Below are positions 3,797-59,011 of a DNA stretch of 64,000 bases, piece by piece (the stretch's first letter is position 1; every line of letters starts with the position of its first letter). Location: positions 3,553 through 67,552 of the forward strand of contig WGBD01000011.1 in assembly GCA_015494465.1 (NCBI GenBank), given 5' to 3'. The notes below the pieces were generated by a model. The model was given only the letters and a program-made list of their open reading frames with translations, made no database searches and was not told the DNA's origin. This DNA is from Candidatus Omnitrophota bacterium. GTDB lineage: Bacteria > Omnitrophota > Gorgyraeia > S143-82. The translations under genes were made by a program, and so were the position numbers.

Positions 3797-3824
3797 ATTT
3801 TACGGATTCACTCCAAAATTGCAA
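3797..3824 (-). promoter_or_regulatory. Putative sigma70-type promoter of gltB (-35 TTGCAA, 16 nt spacer, -10 TAAAAT)
   Basis: Minus-strand reading is TTGCAATTTTGGAGTGAATCCGTAAAAT, located about 45 nt upstream of the gltB ATG and downstream of the terminator that follows the PEP-CTERM gene. Confidence 0.45.
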
Positions 3825-3864: not shown

Positions 3865-3892
3865 ACAAAAAAGCCCATCCTCTCGGATGGGC
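3865..3892 (-). terminator. Rho-independent terminator after the PEP-CTERM gene
   Basis: Minus strand reads GCCCATCC-GAGA-GGATGGGC, a perfect 8 bp stem, followed by TTTTTTG. It lies 30 nt after the stop codon of the 3923..4708 gene. Confidence 0.8.
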
Positions 3893-3922
3893 CTGCTTAG
3901 TCAGCGGAGGCACCTCACCAAT

Positions 3923-4708
3923 TCACCTGCGCCTTCTCAACAGGGCAATCCCGGCAAGGCCGAGGAGGTACAAACCAGAGGTGGCGGGTTCAGGGACGGT
4001 GGAAAGCGGTATCGGGGATCCGGTACCGCCCTTGCCCCAGTAATAGGTCCCCGTACCCGGATCCTTGGCAACGATTACCGCCGGGGATCCACCAGGACCC
4101 GCATTGTAAGCGAACATAAACGCATTTAAATGTTCGCCAGGGATAAGTCCTCCAACGCCACCATCGATACCGAAGCCAATAGCTGCCCAATAGTCAGGGA
4201 AAAGGGTCTCAAAGGTTTCACCCGCAAATATACCTGCCCAATCTGTGTCGGAGATAACATCATCGAAGTTCTCGGAGGTCAGCATAGTAGCACCCCACCC
4301 CTCTGGGGTTCCAGCAATCGGATCGCCATCGTCTCCGTAATATGCGCTTTCGTAGGCATCAGCACTTATCCCGACCCCAAAAGCAACGATGTTAAAAGGA
4401 GAGACATTTGTCACGCTGTAAGAAAGCACATGCACGATGGTCCCATCCTGTATGTCATCAGAAGCCACAAAAGGATCAAGGGCAGTTTCCAAGTAATGTC
4501 CCACCTCACTACACCCCGTTCCGGGATAGCAGAACAGATCCTCTCCATCCGGATGAACGAGCCAACCAATGTCATCTTTGTACTGAGCAATGTACAGATT
4601 CTCATCTACCACCGCAAAAGGTGCCACGACAAACCCAGCGGAGGCTATCCCTGCAGCCAACCAGGCGACTACTGCAAGCGCACCTAATACCTTTGCCACC
4701 ACCTTCAT
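3923..4708 (-). CDS. PEP-CTERM sorting-domain secreted protein (Gly/Asp-rich, 261 aa)
   Basis: N-terminal signal peptide MKVVAKVLGALAVVAWLAAGIASA. The C-terminus VPEPATSGLYLLGLAGIALLRRRR has a PEP motif, then a hydrophobic helix, then an Arg cluster, which is the canonical exosortase target signature. SD GGAGGTG upstream. Own terminator downstream. Confidence 0.8.
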   Translation of the reverse strand: MKVVAKVLGALAVVAWLAAGIASAGFVVAPFAVVDENLYIAQYKDDIGWLVHPDGEDLFCYPGTGCSEVGHYLETALDPFVASDDIQDGTIVHVLSYSVTNVSPFNIVAFGVGISADAYESAYYGDDGDPIAGTPEGWGATMLTSENFDDVISDTDWAGIFAGETFETLFPDYWAAIGFGIDGGVGGLIPGEHLNAFMFAYNAGPGGSPAVIVAKDPGTGTYYWGKGGTGSPIPLSTVPEPATSGLYLLGLAGIALLRRRR

Positions 4709-4800
4709 ATGAACACCTCCGTTTTATAAGGGTCCGTTCCAGTCATCATCCCCCTAAGACCACACAACCCGAAGGCATTATTCTAACCCAAAACAAATCT

Positions 4801-5742
4801 TTAAAAAAGAACTTTCTTTATCCCGTCTTTATCCTCAACGAAATCAGGCAGTTGCGTGCTTACTTTCAACGGTTCTCCGGTGATGGGATGGGGCAGTTCC
4901 ACGCGAAAGGCGTGGAGGCACATCCGCGGAGAGGGATCGTGCTTCCTCCCGTACTTTTTGTCTCCCACGATGGGCAGGCCAAGATATGACAGGTGGACGC
5001 GTATCTGATGTGTCCTGCCGGTTATGGGGTGCACCAGCAAGAGGGTCTTGTCTGGGTAACGCGCCAAGACCCCGTATTCGGTTATCGCGGGACGACTGGA
5101 TGGGCCAGTACCCACGCGAAAGAGGTCACGGTGTCTCGGGTGCCTCTCTATGGGAAGGTCTATCACATCCTCTTCGTATTCGGGGGAACCCCAGACCAGG
5201 GCAAGGTAGTCCTTTCTCACCTGCCTCCGCTCAAACATCCGGGAAAGCCTTGAGTGGGTGCGCCTGTCCTTTGCCACGAGCAGGACCCCAGATGTCTCCT
5301 TGTCCAACCTGTGCACTATCCCGGGTCGGTCCTTATCCCCCACCTCCGCTATCTCCTCTCCCACATACCCCAAAAGGGCATTGGCAAGCGTACCCGCCTT
5401 TACCCCTGCCCCGGGATGCACGACCATCCCCGCAGGCTTGTTCACCGCCAATAGATACTCGTCCTCGTAGAGTATCTCGAGCGGCACGGATTCGGGCAGG
5501 AGTTGGTTATCCTCGGGTCGGAGGGCCTCTTCCTCCCACTGAAAGAGCATCCCTGCCTCCAGTCTCAACGACGGGCGGAAGGGACGAAACCGACGCTGTC
5601 GGGGATCAAACACCTGTATTTGTCCCTGCTTAATCAGGTCCTTTATCCGCTCCCGAGACAACTCCGGGAAGATACCTGCAAAGAACCTGTCCGCCCGCTG
5701 ACCGGCCTCCTCCGGACCTATCGCAACCTTCTTGAGCGCCAC
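4801..5742 (-). CDS. rluD: 23S rRNA pseudouridine synthase, RluD/RluA family
   Basis: S4-like N-terminal segment FFAGIFPELSRERIKDLIKQG, then the catalytic core HRLDKETSGVLLVAKD. The ORF track starts at GTG 5805 but that would overlap lgt by 88 nt. The in-frame GTG at 5742 fits an alignment to the RluD N-terminus better. Start is uncertain. Confidence 0.75.
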   Translation of the reverse strand: MALKKVAIGPEEAGQRADRFFAGIFPELSRERIKDLIKQGQIQVFDPRQRRFRPFRPSLRLEAGMLFQWEEEALRPEDNQLLPESVPLEILYEDEYLLAVNKPAGMVVHPGAGVKAGTLANALLGYVGEEIAEVGDKDRPGIVHRLDKETSGVLLVAKDRRTHSRLSRMFERRQVRKDYLALVWGSPEYEEDVIDLPIERHPRHRDLFRVGTGPSSRPAITEYGVLARYPDKTLLLVHPITGRTHQIRVHLSYLGLPIVGDKKYGRKHDPSPRMCLHAFRVELPHPITGEPLKVSTQLPDFVEDKDGIKKVLF

Positions 5743-6461
5743 AACAGGAGCCCCCCGAAGACGATTAATCCCAAAGACACCCACTGGGAAAACCGCAGGT
5801 GCCACCAGACCGGAACCGGATCACCCCTCAGGAACTCTATCCCGAAACGCATTACACCGTAGAGGAGGAGATACCATCCCAAGACGATCCCTCTTCCCAC
5901 CCCGTAGATCCTGCGGACAATCGTCAATACCAGGAACGACAAAAAAAGGCCAAAACTTGAGAGGAGCTGGGTGGGTATCACCTTCAATCCAAGGGCCTTG
6001 AGGTATATTCCGAACTTCAGGGACAAGCGCCCGTAACAGCATCCGTGGAAGAAACAACCAATTCTGCCGAAGGCGTGTCCGATGGCAACGCAGGGGGCAA
6101 GCAGGTCGAGGTACTTCAAAACCGAAGCCTTCTTCCACCTCAAGTAAAATACCGAAAACACCACGGATGCTATAAGCCCTCCGTACCACACCCGCCCGGC
6201 AGAGAATACATTAATAAGGGAGATGAGCCCCTTATACTCCTCGGGGTACTGCAAGAGGTAGAGATAATGGGCGCAGACCAGCCCTATTATCACCGAATAG
6301 ACTATTAGTCTGTCCACCAATTCGACATCCAACCTGAATCTGCGTGCGGATAGGACACCGCAGGCCCAACCGACCGCCAGACCAACCGCGGCGAAGAGTC
6401 CGTAGGTGTATATCGTGATGGTGTGTCCGCCTATTGAGAACCTTGCAAGAATGGGGTGCAC
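5718..6461 (-). CDS. lgt: Prolipoprotein diacylglyceryl transferase
   Basis: Polytopic membrane protein with the Lgt signature GHAFGRIGCFFHGCCYG. The N-terminus aligns to the Lgt FSIGP region. Confidence 0.9.
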   Translation of the reverse strand: MHPILARFSIGGHTITIYTYGLFAAVGLAVGWACGVLSARRFRLDVELVDRLIVYSVIIGLVCAHYLYLLQYPEEYKGLISLINVFSAGRVWYGGLIASVVFSVFYLRWKKASVLKYLDLLAPCVAIGHAFGRIGCFFHGCCYGRLSLKFGIYLKALGLKVIPTQLLSSFGLFLSFLVLTIVRRIYGVGRGIVLGWYLLLYGVMRFGIEFLRGDPVPVWWHLRFSQWVSLGLIVFGGLLLWRSRRLR

Positions 6462-7516: not shown

Positions 7517-7918
7517 CTACTTCTTATTCTCTTTGCTGGACTCTTTCTTGCCTTCCAGATCCTCAAACTTTGCGGTTATCACCGCCTCCGCAATGCGCTT
7601 ACCGGAGTCGTCGTAGGTATAACTGACCTCGATGTCGTCCCCGGGGTTTATCTCCTTCAGAGACGGGGAACCGAGGTATTCGGTGTTCTCGTTGACATAG
7701 ACCACGACGGTGGCGTCACGATCGTTTTCGAAGTCGTAATAGGATACTTCTATGGAGTTGTTCTTGACATCCACCGACTTGACTATCCCCATGACCCATT
7801 CCAAGGCTACAGGTTCCTGCTGATTGCCCGAGGCCTTTGTCCCCTCTTCCGCACACGAAACGAGTCCCCAAGACAGAGTCAAGACCAATACCAGAGCGAT
7901 TCCTGCTATACGCTTCAT
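7517..7918 (-). CDS. Hypothetical lipoprotein (133 aa)
   Basis: Signal peptide ending in the lipobox LVSC. Small acidic beta-rich body with a Lys/Glu-rich tail. No family recognised. Confidence 0.55.
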   Translation of the reverse strand: MKRIAGIALVLVLTLSWGLVSCAEEGTKASGNQQEPVALEWVMGIVKSVDVKNNSIEVSYYDFENDRDATVVVYVNENTEYLGSPSLKEINPGDDIEVSYTYDDSGKRIAEAVITAKFEDLEGKKESSKENKK

Positions 7919-32492: not shown

Positions 32493-33145
32493 CCTTTCGC
32501 CTCCATCCTTTCCAAGGCCATTCTCGCCGCCGAGGTCTCGGCAGTCTTGCGATTCGTACCCTTACCTACCGCAACGAGTTTACCGTTTATGAAGACACCT
32601 ACCTCGAACTCCGGACGATGCCTTGGCCCCTTCACCCCCAGGACGGAGTACTTAGGGGAGGCATTCCCCTTGGCCTGGGAGAGCAGTTGCAATCTCTCCT
32701 TTGGACCCAGCACATCCTCAGGGGTAAGGGCCTCTATCACCCCTGTCCAGAGACGCTCTATAAGACGGTAGGCCGAAGGGAGCCCACCGTCCAGATAAAC
32801 CGCTCCCACTATCGCCTCCATCGCATCCGCCAGCACCTTTGCGGAAGTCGCCTCGGAGCGTATTAGCACATAACGGGACAGGTCAACTACCTCTGCCACC
32901 TCCCGCAAGACCTTGCGGGAGACCAGGTAGGACTTGAGACGCGTGAGCACGCCCTCGTGGGCCCTGGAGAGATAACGGAACAGGTAATCAGATATAACCA
33001 ACCCCAATACGCTGTCTCCCAAGAACTCCAGACGCTGGAAGTTTGCCTTGGGATCCGCGCTGGGGTGGACCAGTGCCAGACGCAGGAGGTCCGGATCCCG
33101 AAAGCGATAACCCAGATTATCCTGCAACCTGCCGAGATCCCTCAT
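32489..33145 (-). CDS. rnc: Ribonuclease III
   Basis: 218 aa. RNase III signature ERLEFLGDSVLG and a C-terminal dsRBD. Confidence 0.92.
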   Translation of the reverse strand: MRDLGRLQDNLGYRFRDPDLLRLALVHPSADPKANFQRLEFLGDSVLGLVISDYLFRYLSRAHEGVLTRLKSYLVSRKVLREVAEVVDLSRYVLIRSEATSAKVLADAMEAIVGAVYLDGGLPSAYRLIERLWTGVIEALTPEDVLGPKERLQLLSQAKGNASPKYSVLGVKGPRHRPEFEVGVFINGKLVAVGKGTNRKTAETSAARMALERMEAKG

Positions 33146-34473
33146 AGCAGTTCCGCTGCCATAGAGGCCACATCACTGCGTTCGCTCTTGGTGAGCACGA
33201 CATGGCCAAACAGTTCCTGTCCCTTGAGTCGTTCTACGCAATAGGTAAGCCCGTTGCTGTAATAGTCCAGATAAGGGCTGTCTATCTGATAGGGATCTCC
33301 GGTGAGGATTATCTTGCTCTTCTCCCCAACCCGGGAGATGATGGTCTTGACCTCGTGGGGCGAGAGGTTCTGGGCCTCGTCTATGAGGATGTACTGGGAA
33401 GGTATGCTTCTCCCCCGCATGTAGGTTAGGGCCTCTATCTCTATGATGCCCTCCTCTATGAACCTCTCCACATCCATCCGGCTGAATTCCTTGCGCCTGC
33501 CCTTCTGCCCCCGGCTGGTCAGGATGAACTCCAGATTGTCGTATATCGGCCCCATCCAGTTAGAGAGTTTCTCCTCCTTACTGCCCGGCAGGTAACCAAT
33601 ATCCTTGCCCAGAGGCATAACCGGACGGGAGATAAGTATCCGGGTATAGACCTCCTCGTCTATCACCTTGTGCAATCCCGCTGCGAGCGCCAGGAGGGTC
33701 TTGCCCGTACCTGCGGCACCGACGAGGGTGACCAGTTTTATGCTGTCGTCCAACAGCAGGTGCAGGGCCATCACCTGCTCTTTATTGCGCGGTTTTATGG
33801 ACCAGACCGCACCGGAGCGGTTGGTTAGGGGGACGATCTTCTTCTGAGAGGCCTTGTAGATGGCCAGACCCGAATGGGCGGGGTTCTCCTTTTCCCTTAT
33901 CAGAAAAAATTCGTTGGCGTAGGCAGAGAAACCGTCCTCCACCGGCAGGGCCCCTTTGGTGAAGAGGTTCTCCATATCCTCTGCGGACAGGTACAGTTCC
34001 CTCCAGCCGGGATAGAGTTCGGTGGTCTCTATCTTGCCCGCGACATAATCCTCTGCCCTTATCCCAAAGGCATTGGCCTTGACGCGCAGGTTTATGTCCT
34101 TGGTGATGAATATAACCTCCACTTCGGGATCTGCCTTCTGCAGGAGGTAGACGGTCATAAGCATGCGGTTGTCAGGCGTGTCAGGTGAGATGCCGAGATC
34201 CTGATGTGCGCGGGTCAGGTCCAGGAAAGATGGGATCTTCAGGAGACCGCCGTTCTCCAGAGGGACCCCTTTGCTGAAGTCGCCTTCCTTGCGCAAGGCA
34301 TCCAAAGTGCGTATGATTTGCCGAGCGTTTCGTCCTAATTCGTCGTCCACGCGCTTGAACTTGTCCAATTCTTCAAGGACCTCTATCGGGATTATCACCT
34401 CATTTTCCCCAAAAGAGAATATCGCATTGGAGGCGTGCAGGAGCACATTGGTATCCAGGACGAACCGCTTCAT
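33142..34473 (-). CDS. PhoH2-type protein (N-terminal PIN domain fused to a PhoH-like ATPase)
   Basis: Start MKRFVLDTNVLLHASNAIFSF is a PIN fold. It is followed by the P-loop VTLVGAAGTGKTLLALA. The ATG at 34473 is one nt after the hisF stop. The ORF-track extension overlaps hisF. Confidence 0.85.
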   Translation of the reverse strand: MKRFVLDTNVLLHASNAIFSFGENEVIIPIEVLEELDKFKRVDDELGRNARQIIRTLDALRKEGDFSKGVPLENGGLLKIPSFLDLTRAHQDLGISPDTPDNRMLMTVYLLQKADPEVEVIFITKDINLRVKANAFGIRAEDYVAGKIETTELYPGWRELYLSAEDMENLFTKGALPVEDGFSAYANEFFLIREKENPAHSGLAIYKASQKKIVPLTNRSGAVWSIKPRNKEQVMALHLLLDDSIKLVTLVGAAGTGKTLLALAAGLHKVIDEEVYTRILISRPVMPLGKDIGYLPGSKEEKLSNWMGPIYDNLEFILTSRGQKGRRKEFSRMDVERFIEEGIIEIEALTYMRGRSIPSQYILIDEAQNLSPHEVKTIISRVGEKSKIILTGDPYQIDSPYLDYYSNGLTYCVERLKGQELFGHVVLTKSERSDVASMAAELL

Positions 34474-34474
34474 T

Positions 34475-35248
34475 TCAGGCCCTCCCTTCTGGCATAAGGC
34501 GAACCGGGATCCCACGGGAACTCAGATACTCCTTGACCTCGGGTATAGTGAACTGGCGAAAGTGAAAGACCGAGGCAGCGAGCACCGCATCCGCCCCAGC
34601 GATGAGCACCTCGTAAAAGTGCTCCATCTTCCCTGCCCCACCGGATGCGATGACCGGCACATCCACCACCGATGCTACCTTTGCGGTCAACTCCACATCG
34701 TAGCCCCGTTTCGTCCCGTCCGCATCCATACTCGTCAGCAGGATCTCGCCGGCCCCAAGATCGCAAACCCGCTTTGCCCATTCTATAGCATCCAATCCGG
34801 TATCCTTTCTACCCCCCTCAACGAATACATTCCAGCGCCCCATCTCTACCCTGCGGGCATCTATCGCCACCACTATGCACTGACTTCCAAACTTCCTCGC
34901 TCCCTCCTTTATCAGGTTCGGGTTCCTGACTGCAGAGGTGTTTATGGAGACCTTGTCCGCACCCGCTAAAAGGAGCTCCCGAATGTCCTCGATAGTGCGG
35001 ATCCCACCCCCCACCGTAAGGGGCATAAACACGCTCTCCGCAGTCCTGCGGACCACATCTATCATTATTCCCCTCTTCTCGTAACTGGCGGTGATGTCCA
35101 GAAAGACCAGTTCGTCTGCCCCCTGCTCCTCGTACACCTTTGCATTCTCCACCGGATCGCCTGCGTCTATCAGGTTGACGAAGTTCACTCCCTTGACGAC
35201 CCGCCCTGCCTTTACATCCAGACACGGTATTATCCGTTTCGCCAGCAC
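34475..35248 (-). CDS. hisF: Imidazole glycerol phosphate synthase cyclase subunit
   Basis: 257 aa. [23 protein letters not shown] is the canonical HisF N-terminus. Confidence 0.93.
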
Positions 35249-57541: not shown

Positions 57542-59011
57542 CTACTCTACTCGCCAGAACTTGAAGCGGATTATCCTCTTAAGTAGCCCTATCTCCCCAA
57601 CGAACCAGGTGCGTTGGGCAGGTGTGGGGTCTATCTCCTCCTCGTCTATCACATGGTTGCCGTTGACATCCGCACTGGCCCTGACGCTGAAGACATGCCT
57701 TCCCGGTGCAAGGTTGACCAGAAGCACCGAATCCTCTTTAGACCACCTGCTCCACTTCCCTCCATCCAAGGAATAAGAGTAGTAGCACTTGTCGAGGGAA
57801 CAACGATACCGGAAATAGGCATCCGTCTGCTTGGTCACTCCCGTTGGTCCGCTGACGATAATGGTATCCGGGGCAAGTAGTTCCAGGATTATGGAGGAAG
57901 AATACACTCGCGAGACATTGCCTGCCTTATCCATGAACTGGACGAAGACCGTCTGCCTTCCACTGTAGGGCCTCAGTCTCCACTCTAGCTCCTCTCTGTA
58001 ATCCGTCCAGGCAGAGGACTCACATTCCGCTCGGGAGTTCCCTACCCTAACCTTGCTCACCCCTGAATAATTGTCCTGGGCCGACAGCGTTAACAATACA
58101 GTGATACTATTAGTGTGCTTGGCCCCGTGGTTTATCTGAACGGATCCGGTGGGGGGGATCGTGTCCACCGCAAAACCCCATACGAAGGCGCTCGTCCTGT
58201 TGCCTGCCAAATCGCTGGCCTCCACGGAGACGGTTACCCTGCCCTCGGGTAAGATACCGTAATTGACGAAGCAACCGCAGGTTTTGTCGAACTTCAGGTA
58301 CACCCGACGGTTATTTATTCTACACACTACGTGCCTGGCATCCACACCACTGGCCTTATCCTCTATCCAGATCTTAATCGGTTCGTCTCGGGCGTTCAAC
58401 AGCGTCCCACTCTTTGGCTCCACCCGGCTTATCCCCGGAGGCTCGGTGTCCACCCATATGGCAAAACTGCCCACCTCGCCCCAGACACCTGCGCTATTTT
58501 GGGCCTTCACATAGAAGGTATGCTTACCATCGGTAATGGGGTTGTCCTTATAATCTGCAAACTTGCTGGTGGTATCTATCTCGTCGTCTGGATCCGAATC
58601 CAAGGAGTAGCTGTAACCTGCGGGGATGAGCTGGGGATTCTTTATCTCCCAGACGAAGTAAGGCGTAGGATCCGACTGCCACCTTCCAGGGTATATCCTA
58701 AAACCGCCTGGGTGGGTATAGGCCGAGATCCAATCGATGTCGTAAGCACCCTCCTCCTCAGGTCCTTGCCCCAATATAGTGAGCACCGTAAAAAAACCAC
58801 TGGTGATCTTCTTCATCTCCCTAACGATCACCCCAACGAAGGTATCGCCTATAACATGCCTGATGATGTAATTCGCGGAACGCATAGGCGATGTCCCCAT
58901 CGCGGTTATCCAACCCCAGTGCTTGAATTGCTTTGACCTGGGCGGAGAGAATCCCCACAGGTCAACCAGCAGAAAACACCCTAGCAACAAAATCAGCCAC
59001 TTTTTGCGCAT
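57542..59011 (-). CDS. Secreted hypothetical protein with tandem Ig-like/fibronectin-like beta domains (489 aa)
   Basis: Signal peptide MRKKWLILLLGCFLLVDLWGF. Repeated modules are each introduced by VDTEPPGISRVEP, VDTIPPTGSVQI or LLAPDTIIVSGP, with conserved SGV/AGN segments, typical of Big/Ig-like extracellular domains. The 5' end overlaps the trpF 3' end by 50 nt. Confidence 0.6.
   Translation of the reverse strand: MRKKWLILLLGCFLLVDLWGFSPPRSKQFKHWGWITAMGTSPMRSANYIIRHVIGDTFVGVIVREMKKITSGFFTVLTILGQGPEEEGAYDIDWISAYTHPGGFRIYPGRWQSDPTPYFVWEIKNPQLIPAGYSYSLDSDPDDEIDTTSKFADYKDNPITDGKHTFYVKAQNSAGVWGEVGSFAIWVDTEPPGISRVEPKSGTLLNARDEPIKIWIEDKASGVDARHVVCRINNRRVYLKFDKTCGCFVNYGILPEGRVTVSVEASDLAGNRTSAFVWGFAVDTIPPTGSVQINHGAKHTNSITVLLTLSAQDNYSGVSKVRVGNSRAECESSAWTDYREELEWRLRPYSGRQTVFVQFMDKAGNVSRVYSSSIILELLAPDTIIVSGPTGVTKQTDAYFRYRCSLDKCYYSYSLDGGKWSRWSKEDSVLLVNLAPGRHVFSVRASADVNGNHVIDEEEIDPTPAQRTWFVGEIGLLKRIIRFKFWRVE

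Follow-up and report, generated by a model that had tools for sequence, protein, structure and literature searches.

PEP-CTERM proteins (TIGR02595/PF07589) are abundant and mostly uncharacterised parts of bacterial surfaces and extracellular matrices. They are small, non-enzymatic, compositionally biased extracellular proteins of diderm hosts, with a signal peptide at the N-terminus and a tripartite tail at the C-terminus, and Haft reportedly found in 2006 that such tails occur essentially only in genomes that encode an exosortase. YcnI/DUF1775 is a membrane-tethered extracytoplasmic domain, and the copper site of YcnI is formed by the N-terminal His of the mature protein. The 261-aa protein described here, encoded in a window of 64,000 nucleotides (the whole stretch of DNA that was analysed) of Candidatus Omnitrophota, was found to resemble PEP-CTERM proteins in its tail, its signal peptide, its diderm host and its small, biased and apparently non-enzymatic extracellular part. 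Its gene differed from known PEP-CTERM systems in being isolated among housekeeping genes, with neither an exosortase nor an EPS locus nor another PEP-CTERM protein in view, and its passenger domain fell into no named subfamily. The host also differed, being apparently a member of Omnitrophota, bacteria for which a very small cell size and an association with hosts have often been suggested.

PepA of Zoogloea/Aquincola (NF033554) is a flocculation-associated PEP-CTERM protein that retains exopolysaccharide on cells, and its gene is sigma-54-dependent and lies beside prsT/EPS genes (PMC9850573). PepA was found to be similar in size to the window protein (261 model positions vs 261 aa) and to share the order of signal peptide, single domain and PEP-CTERM tail. 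Of the full-length PEP-CTERM family models, NF033554 ranked in the top three for the window protein and was matched by 14 of the 15 wider-family members, more than any other model, the match running 50-80 residues upstream of the tail in some distant relatives. Membership in the PepA family was rejected, as the window protein scored 21.9 bits (residues 220-261 only) and its best relative 45.7 bits against a cutoff of 80. Its retention of exopolysaccharide on cells makes PepA a plausible analogue in function. The promoters differed, the promoter-like site of the window gene being of sigma-70 type with no convincing -24/-12 element by eye. A sigma-54 promoter for the window gene was rejected on the same inspection, in which TGGAAC was present with no acceptable -12 element and would overlap the Shine-Dalgarno sequence.

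The locus is likely to encode, in a monocistronic gene, a protein of the cell surface or matrix that is sorted by the PEP-CTERM/exosortase route. By this route Sec would export the precursor, the C-terminal helix would keep it in the inner membrane, and an exosortase, assumed to be encoded elsewhere in the genome, would cut it at the PEP motif. Once freed, the acidic beta-sandwich would reach the cell surface or the extracellular matrix, possibly glycosylated or polysaccharide-bound, where it would act as a binding or structural module (adhesion, matrix retention) and not as an enzyme. These putative steps of export, cleavage and delivery are taken from what is known of PEP-CTERM/exosortase systems (Haft and colleagues; PepA, PMC9850573). 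The sorting route was supported by tail models that pass their cutoffs, by a constraint that is stronger on the tail than anywhere else in the protein and by conserved signals and synteny. A fold nearest to surface and adhesin domains, the same layout in the wider family, a second PEP-CTERM protein on the contig of a distant member and the diderm host also speak for it. The counterweight was that no exosortase was seen in the window, in the 4.6 kb beyond it or next to the relatives examined, and that no EPS locus was found nearby and no second PEP-CTERM protein in the window.

The gene was found to be flanked by predicted signals at both ends (Table 1), which support its reading as a self-contained, monocistronic transcription unit. 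The Shine-Dalgarno sequence was kept in the orthologous loci L002 and L003, where the 5′ ~30 nt of the rluD/PEP-CTERM spacer was also nearly invariant. The stem of the terminator-like hairpin had 10 pairs, built on a perfect 8-bp core (GCCCATCC/GGATGGGC), and the hairpin reached z = -2.9 vs shuffles. Its arms and T-run were kept in L002 and L004, where the loop differed, and the promoter-like site of gltB was fully conserved in the same two loci. Both promoter-like sites are of sigma-70 type and are consensus matches only, so that their promoter function is putative. An earlier note on this DNA had given the gene its own Shine-Dalgarno sequence and a perfect 8-bp terminator and had described gltB as separately promoted; the GGAGGTG, the hairpin with its T-run and, as a consensus match, the gltB site were all recovered.

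Table 1. Features of the PEP-CTERM gene, its protein and its immediate neighbours (positions in the window).
Feature	Position	Strand	Basis and remarks
CDS of the 261-aa PEP-CTERM protein	3923..4708	minus	ORF list; stop TGA 3925..3923
Shine-Dalgarno GGAGGTG	4714..4720	minus	from sequence; 5-nt spacer to ATG at 4708
Promoter-like site TTTAAA-17-AATAAT	4777..4805	minus	consensus scan; in the 92-nt rluD/PEP-CTERM intergenic region
Intrinsic-terminator-like hairpin + T6	3865..3894	minus	hairpin 3894..3871, GAGA loop
Promoter-like site TTGCAA-16-TAAAAT of gltB	3797..3824	minus	consensus scan; marks the cassette's 3′ limit
Sec-type signal peptide, residues 1-24 (MKVVAKVLGALAVVAWLAAGIASA, then G)	4637..4708	minus	inspection; A-x-A site, no lipobox
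Beta-sandwich domain, residues ~28-236, uncharacterised	4001..4627	minus	very acidic
PEP-CTERM sorting tail, residues 238-261	3926..3997	minus	VPEP, hydrophobic helix ATSGLYLLGLAGIALL, C-terminal RRRR
PseudoU_synth_2 (RluD-type) gene	4801..5805	minus	domain match
GltB	from ~3764 downwards	minus	translation; Pfam on the orthologue in L002

The C-terminal end of the protein (...STVPEPATSGLYLLGLAGIALLRRRR; ...PLSTVPEPATSGLYLLGLAGIALLRRRR) was found to contain the tripartite tail at its extreme end, as VPEP followed by ATSGLYLLGLAGIALL and by RRRR directly before the stop, with a predicted helix at residues 241-260. The tail matched TIGR02595 with 20.7 bits (cutoff 16, residues 238-261) and PF07589 with 23.0 bits (cutoff 20.7, residues 237-261). 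The earlier note had called it a textbook PEP-CTERM signal and proposed the TIGR02595 test, which the protein passed, as it did that of PF07589. At the N-terminus, MKVVAK was followed by a hydrophobic core and by ASA, with G as the next residue, and an equivalent N-terminus was present in all 14 full-length relatives; the AlphaFold2 model contained a helix at residues 2-22 with low confidence. The claim that the protein is secreted was supported by a Sec-type signal peptide with an A-x-A site, seen by inspection. Together these matches support the protein as a genuine PEP-CTERM cargo, as judged from sequence.

The tail was the most constrained segment of the protein, with dN/dS of 0.019 at dS 0.71 vs 0.13 for the core, and the tail and its linker were nearly invariant in 47%-identical relatives, including the exact PLSTVPEPATS motif. 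Such conservation at a normal dS points to a sequence-specific recognition that is still in use. It forms the main indirect argument for a cognate sorting enzyme, and its strength and specificity imply that such an enzyme probably exists. The conserved tail also bears on an alternative in which the tail is an orphan and the genome has no exosortase, so that the helix and the Arg cluster would anchor the beta-sandwich on the outer face of the inner membrane, making it a tail-anchored periplasmic protein, or another enzyme would process the protein. The absence of an exosortase from the ~70 kb examined, the single PEP-CTERM copy in the window and the nearest fold, that of the membrane-tethered YcnI/DUF1775, are in keeping with such an anchor. 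A mere anchor would, however, not need the exact motif, and the conservation of PLSTVPEPATS and the linker in the 47%-identical relatives goes beyond hydrophobicity and counts against it, as does the reported restriction of PEP-CTERM tails to exosortase-encoding genomes; moreover, the ~70 kb examined belongs to a genome whose source contig alone measures 559 kb. This alternative was judged improbable.

None of the named PEP-CTERM subfamilies was found to cover the protein. Those tried and rejected included, among others, FxDxF (NF038126), NF038129, THxN (NF038125), XDP1 (NF041927), cistern (NF033947) and EDSAP-1 (NF041538), all with scores below the cutoff. The hits were restricted to the tail, with 14-23 bits vs cutoffs of 50-125, and the same was found across the 15-member alignment. 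No Pfam or NCBIfam model covered the passenger domain.

The passenger domain was modelled by AlphaFold2 from a four-sequence alignment with a mean pLDDT of 78.9 and a pTM of 0.73, with ~85-94 over residues 28-236, as a beta-sandwich with short helical inserts. The mature domain contained 30 D+E, 3 K and 0 R residues, with a pI of about 4. Foldseek gave only weak matches with low TM-scores against the PDB, and the nearest folds were Ig-like surface domains, adhesin domains, cohesins and CBMs. No solved structure proved to be related in sequence, and no catalytic family was matched. The domain may be read as a non-enzymatic acidic binding or structural module, a function suggested by the generic resemblance of the predicted fold. 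A role in anti-phage defence was rejected, as PADLOC gave no hit.

Structurally the nearest domain was YcnI/DUF1775 (PDB 7me6, 3esm), at 13-20% identity and with no sequence or Pfam similarity to the window protein. Adhesin Ig domains, cohesins and CBMs scored nearly as well, and therefore only the general fold class is shared. The mature N-terminus of the window protein was found to be Gly-Phe-Val and no family member contained an N-terminal His. Copper binding of the YcnI kind was rejected on the lack of this His, the lack of sequence similarity and a negative DUF1775 test.

Relatives of the protein were found to be few. Only four, including the protein itself, were present among 5.8 billion clustered proteins. 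An 87%-identical orthologue was found in GCA_054004955.1, GCA_054005615.1 and one read assembly, and a metagenome contig of 2 kb (L005) carried a tandem pair of paralogues, each with 47% identity. A protein scan of GTDB representative genomes gave no hit, and neither did a scan of JGI metagenomes with the family alignment. The GltB of the window had its nearest relatives in Candidatus Omnitrophota MAGs, with 63-71% identity, in a collection of species-representative genomes; by this one marker the host is probably an Omnitrophota lineage that has no near representative in that collection. A profile search of 1.84 billion representatives gave one clear distant member (P0007, E = 3e-40), followed by ~12 proteins of 180-250 aa that aligned over positions ~95-261 and thus beyond the tail alone.

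The wider family was found to consist of small proteins with signal peptide, domain and PEP-CTERM tail. They contained the motifs V-D-E, Y-x-V-x-N...F-A-V-G, G-W, LF-x-G-Y and S-P-x-V, with E36, N101, F110, W138, S208 and P209 invariant, and residues ~40-90, which contain a helix and a Cys pair, were an insertion specific to the narrow subfamily. Distant family members were also present in planctomycete-like genomes. The family is very rare and the slot upstream of gltB differs in more distant Omnitrophota, which leaves a lineage- or niche-specific surface protein plausible; the niche-specific reading was one of the two that the earlier note offered. Full-text literature searches yielded no paper on PEP-CTERM or exosortase in Omnitrophota, only passing mentions of the terms.

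The window protein is a typical case of an established kind of system, and its passenger domain belongs to no named family. It adds to that system a domain that folds confidently in prediction and an apparent occurrence in Omnitrophota, and a model built from alignment A2 could replace bare annotations such as 'hypothetical' or 'PEP-CTERM domain'. There is a slim chance of something less ordinary, in which the acidic ~210-aa beta-sandwich would be a new rare passenger family, serving in Omnitrophota as a lineage-specific adhesin or matrix protein, or would be sorted without a canonical exosortase. Sorting in a genome that has no canonical exosortase would, if true, point to an unrecognised sorting enzyme.

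Several observations were made on the relatives themselves. The two paralogues of L005 (122-910 and 1109-1888) were 48% identical to each other, with 83% identity in the tails vs 42% in the rest. Hits of the deep search that matched by the tail only were rejected as cargo of the same lineage, being run-together gene calls with multiple tails from unrelated organisms. Four deep-search hits from outside the window (P0009, P0013, P0024 and P0026) were found to contain 2-4 units of signal peptide, domain and PEP-CTERM tail in one frame. Most likely, stop-codon read-through in the gene calls of high-GC genomes has fused tandem PEP-CTERM genes here, and such merged calls inflate the scores of tail-based searches. 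In L086 (360-4940), the contig of P0007, a 757-aa protein with its own PEP-CTERM tail was followed by two ABC-type ATPases and these, after only 19 nt, by P0007; two PEP-CTERM proteins may be joined here with ABC ATPases in a small operon.

The gene is genuine, is subject to purifying selection and has a stable place between rluD and gltB within its clade. Its dN/dS against the orthologue was 0.12 vs 0.07-0.09 for GT9, Lgt and RluD, and its dS was 0.59, the neighbours having 0.50-1.0. Atypical codon usage and the lack of any annotated domain apart from the tail could also be expected of a chance ORF or a decaying pseudogene. That the gene is non-functional is effectively refuted and carries hardly any weight, since intact orthologues and paralogues were found in five contigs, the dN/dS was low, a confident fold was predicted from only four sequences, and the Shine-Dalgarno sequence, the promoter-like region and the terminator were conserved.

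The slot GT9-lgt-rluD-X-gltB-gltD was found to be the same in two other assemblies (L002, L003, L004), where the gene has 87% identity. No flanking direct repeats, Rfam family, tRNA, integrase or transposase was found at the cassette, and no plasmid or phage homologue of the protein. A recently acquired genomic islet was rejected on the shared site in these loci and the lack of mobility marks, the composition being the only one of its marks that was found. Recent transfer of the gene is effectively excluded.

The composition was found to be atypical. The window protein contained 14.2% G and 7.7% D vs 8.2% and 5.6% in 53 co-oriented genes, and its K+E+R content was 7.7% vs 20.7% (z = -4.3), which agrees with its earlier description as Gly/Asp-rich and poor in Lys, Glu and Arg. 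The proposed codon-usage comparison also set the gene apart, with a GC3 of 0.511 vs 0.689 ± 0.034 in the 53 co-oriented genes (z = -5.2). The GC3 expected from its amino-acid content with the codon usage of the neighbours was 0.671, and the amino-acid content therefore does not explain the low value. The orthologue was also low (0.58 vs 0.62-0.74), and the family members each had the lowest or near-lowest GC3 among their neighbours. The same offset was found in P0007, in an unrelated context, which points to a property of the family and suggests a family-specific codon habit. The overall GC of the family followed the host, with 53% in a 56% genome and 44% in a 43% genome. Both the unusual amino-acid content and the unusual codon usage are thus best read as traits of this extracellular family and not as a mark of recent transfer.

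An older transfer was weighed on the same data. The gene could have come as a horizontally acquired cassette with its own promoter and terminator from a lower-GC donor, having entered between rluD and gltB before the sister lineages diverged and being by now only partly ameliorated. The low GC3 of the gene, unexplained by amino-acid content, and that of its orthologue would fit such an origin, as would the extremely sparse and patchy family, the self-contained form of the gene and the distant Omnitrophota in which amt/glnK precede gltB and the PEP-CTERM gene is lacking. Against these stand the common slot in the sister assemblies with neighbour-like dS and a dN/dS of 0.12, the overall GC that tracks the host in both the 43% and the 56% GC genomes, the recurrence of the GC3 offset in P0007, and the absence of direct repeats, tRNA, integrase, transposase and plasmid or phage homologues. 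Such an acquired cassette was considered rather unlikely.

An ammonium transporter and P-II upstream of gltB form a classical nitrogen cluster. In more distant Omnitrophota and planctomycete-labelled MAGs (L006, L008, L012, L013, L014, L017 and L022, match at ~10001), 1-3 ammonium-transporter genes and P-II were found upstream of gltB. As gltB follows rluD and the PEP-CTERM gene in the lineage of the window but amt/glnK in those genomes, the region has been rearranged, and an old transfer or a local rearrangement of the PEP-CTERM gene is possible. Of the earlier suggestion that the gene is acquired or niche-specific, recent acquisition was contradicted by synteny, dS and the lack of mobility marks, and a lineage- or niche-specific surface protein stayed plausible. 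The earlier note had also held that failure of the tail model together with the lack of any exosortase in the genome, or conserved synteny with normal composition, would speak against it: the model matched, the gene was found at the same site in related genomes (L002, L003, L004), as a search there had been proposed, and the composition was not normal, so that the outcome was divided.

The surroundings of the gene contained core genes. A GT9 heptosyltransferase, Lgt and the RluD-type pseudouridine synthase were present upstream on the coding strand, and 30 further window genes were scanned and found to be housekeeping, among them lipB, ackA, pta, pheS/T, thrS, ahcY, dapB, tsaD, thiC, gpsA, aspartokinase, lpxB, murG and ftsI. 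LpxB and the GT9 heptosyltransferase indicate that LPS is made and thus that the host is diderm. The locus also shows that a PEP-CTERM cargo gene can stand by itself amid genes of core metabolism, at a distance from any EPS or exosortase locus.

On both strands of the window, polytopic membrane ORFs were limited to Lgt and a CDP-alcohol phosphatidyltransferase, and an exosortase was absent from the 64-kb window and from the 4.6 kb beyond its right edge. None was found beside the relatives in all contigs examined or in the Omnitrophota loci, in which the polytopic ORFs upstream of gltB were ammonium transporters, one rhomboid and one TPR protein. No EPS locus was found in the window and no second PEP-CTERM tail among its ORFs (64 kb); among the relatives more than one PEP-CTERM protein was present in L005, as tandem paralogues, and in L086. 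The earlier statement that neither an exosortase nor an EPS locus lies in the window, with the gene between rluD and gltB, was borne out by these scans.

Some further features of the window were also recorded. The 53 retained ORFs, nearly all the convincing genes of the 64-kb window, were on the minus strand with a GC3 of 0.69 ± 0.03, and the gene-strand bias across positions 1-64000 was unusually strong. A small secreted protein of 133 aa with a near-threshold DUF5666 match (7517-7918, minus strand) was present between gcvPB and the GT9 gene, and L002 has it at the corresponding site with 88% conservation. A 489-aa protein (57542-59011, minus strand) contained a signal peptide and weak Big_13/DUF7743 matches and no PEP-CTERM tail, and is probably another surface protein in the housekeeping run. 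A 457-aa fusion of a PIN domain and a PhoH-like ATPase (33142-34515, minus strand) was found among biosynthetic genes. The longest ORF of the RluD-type gene started with GTG at 5805, with 334 aa and an 88-nt overlap with lgt; the orthologue in L002 (1927..2868) was called at 313 aa, and the true start is therefore probably ~20 codons further in.
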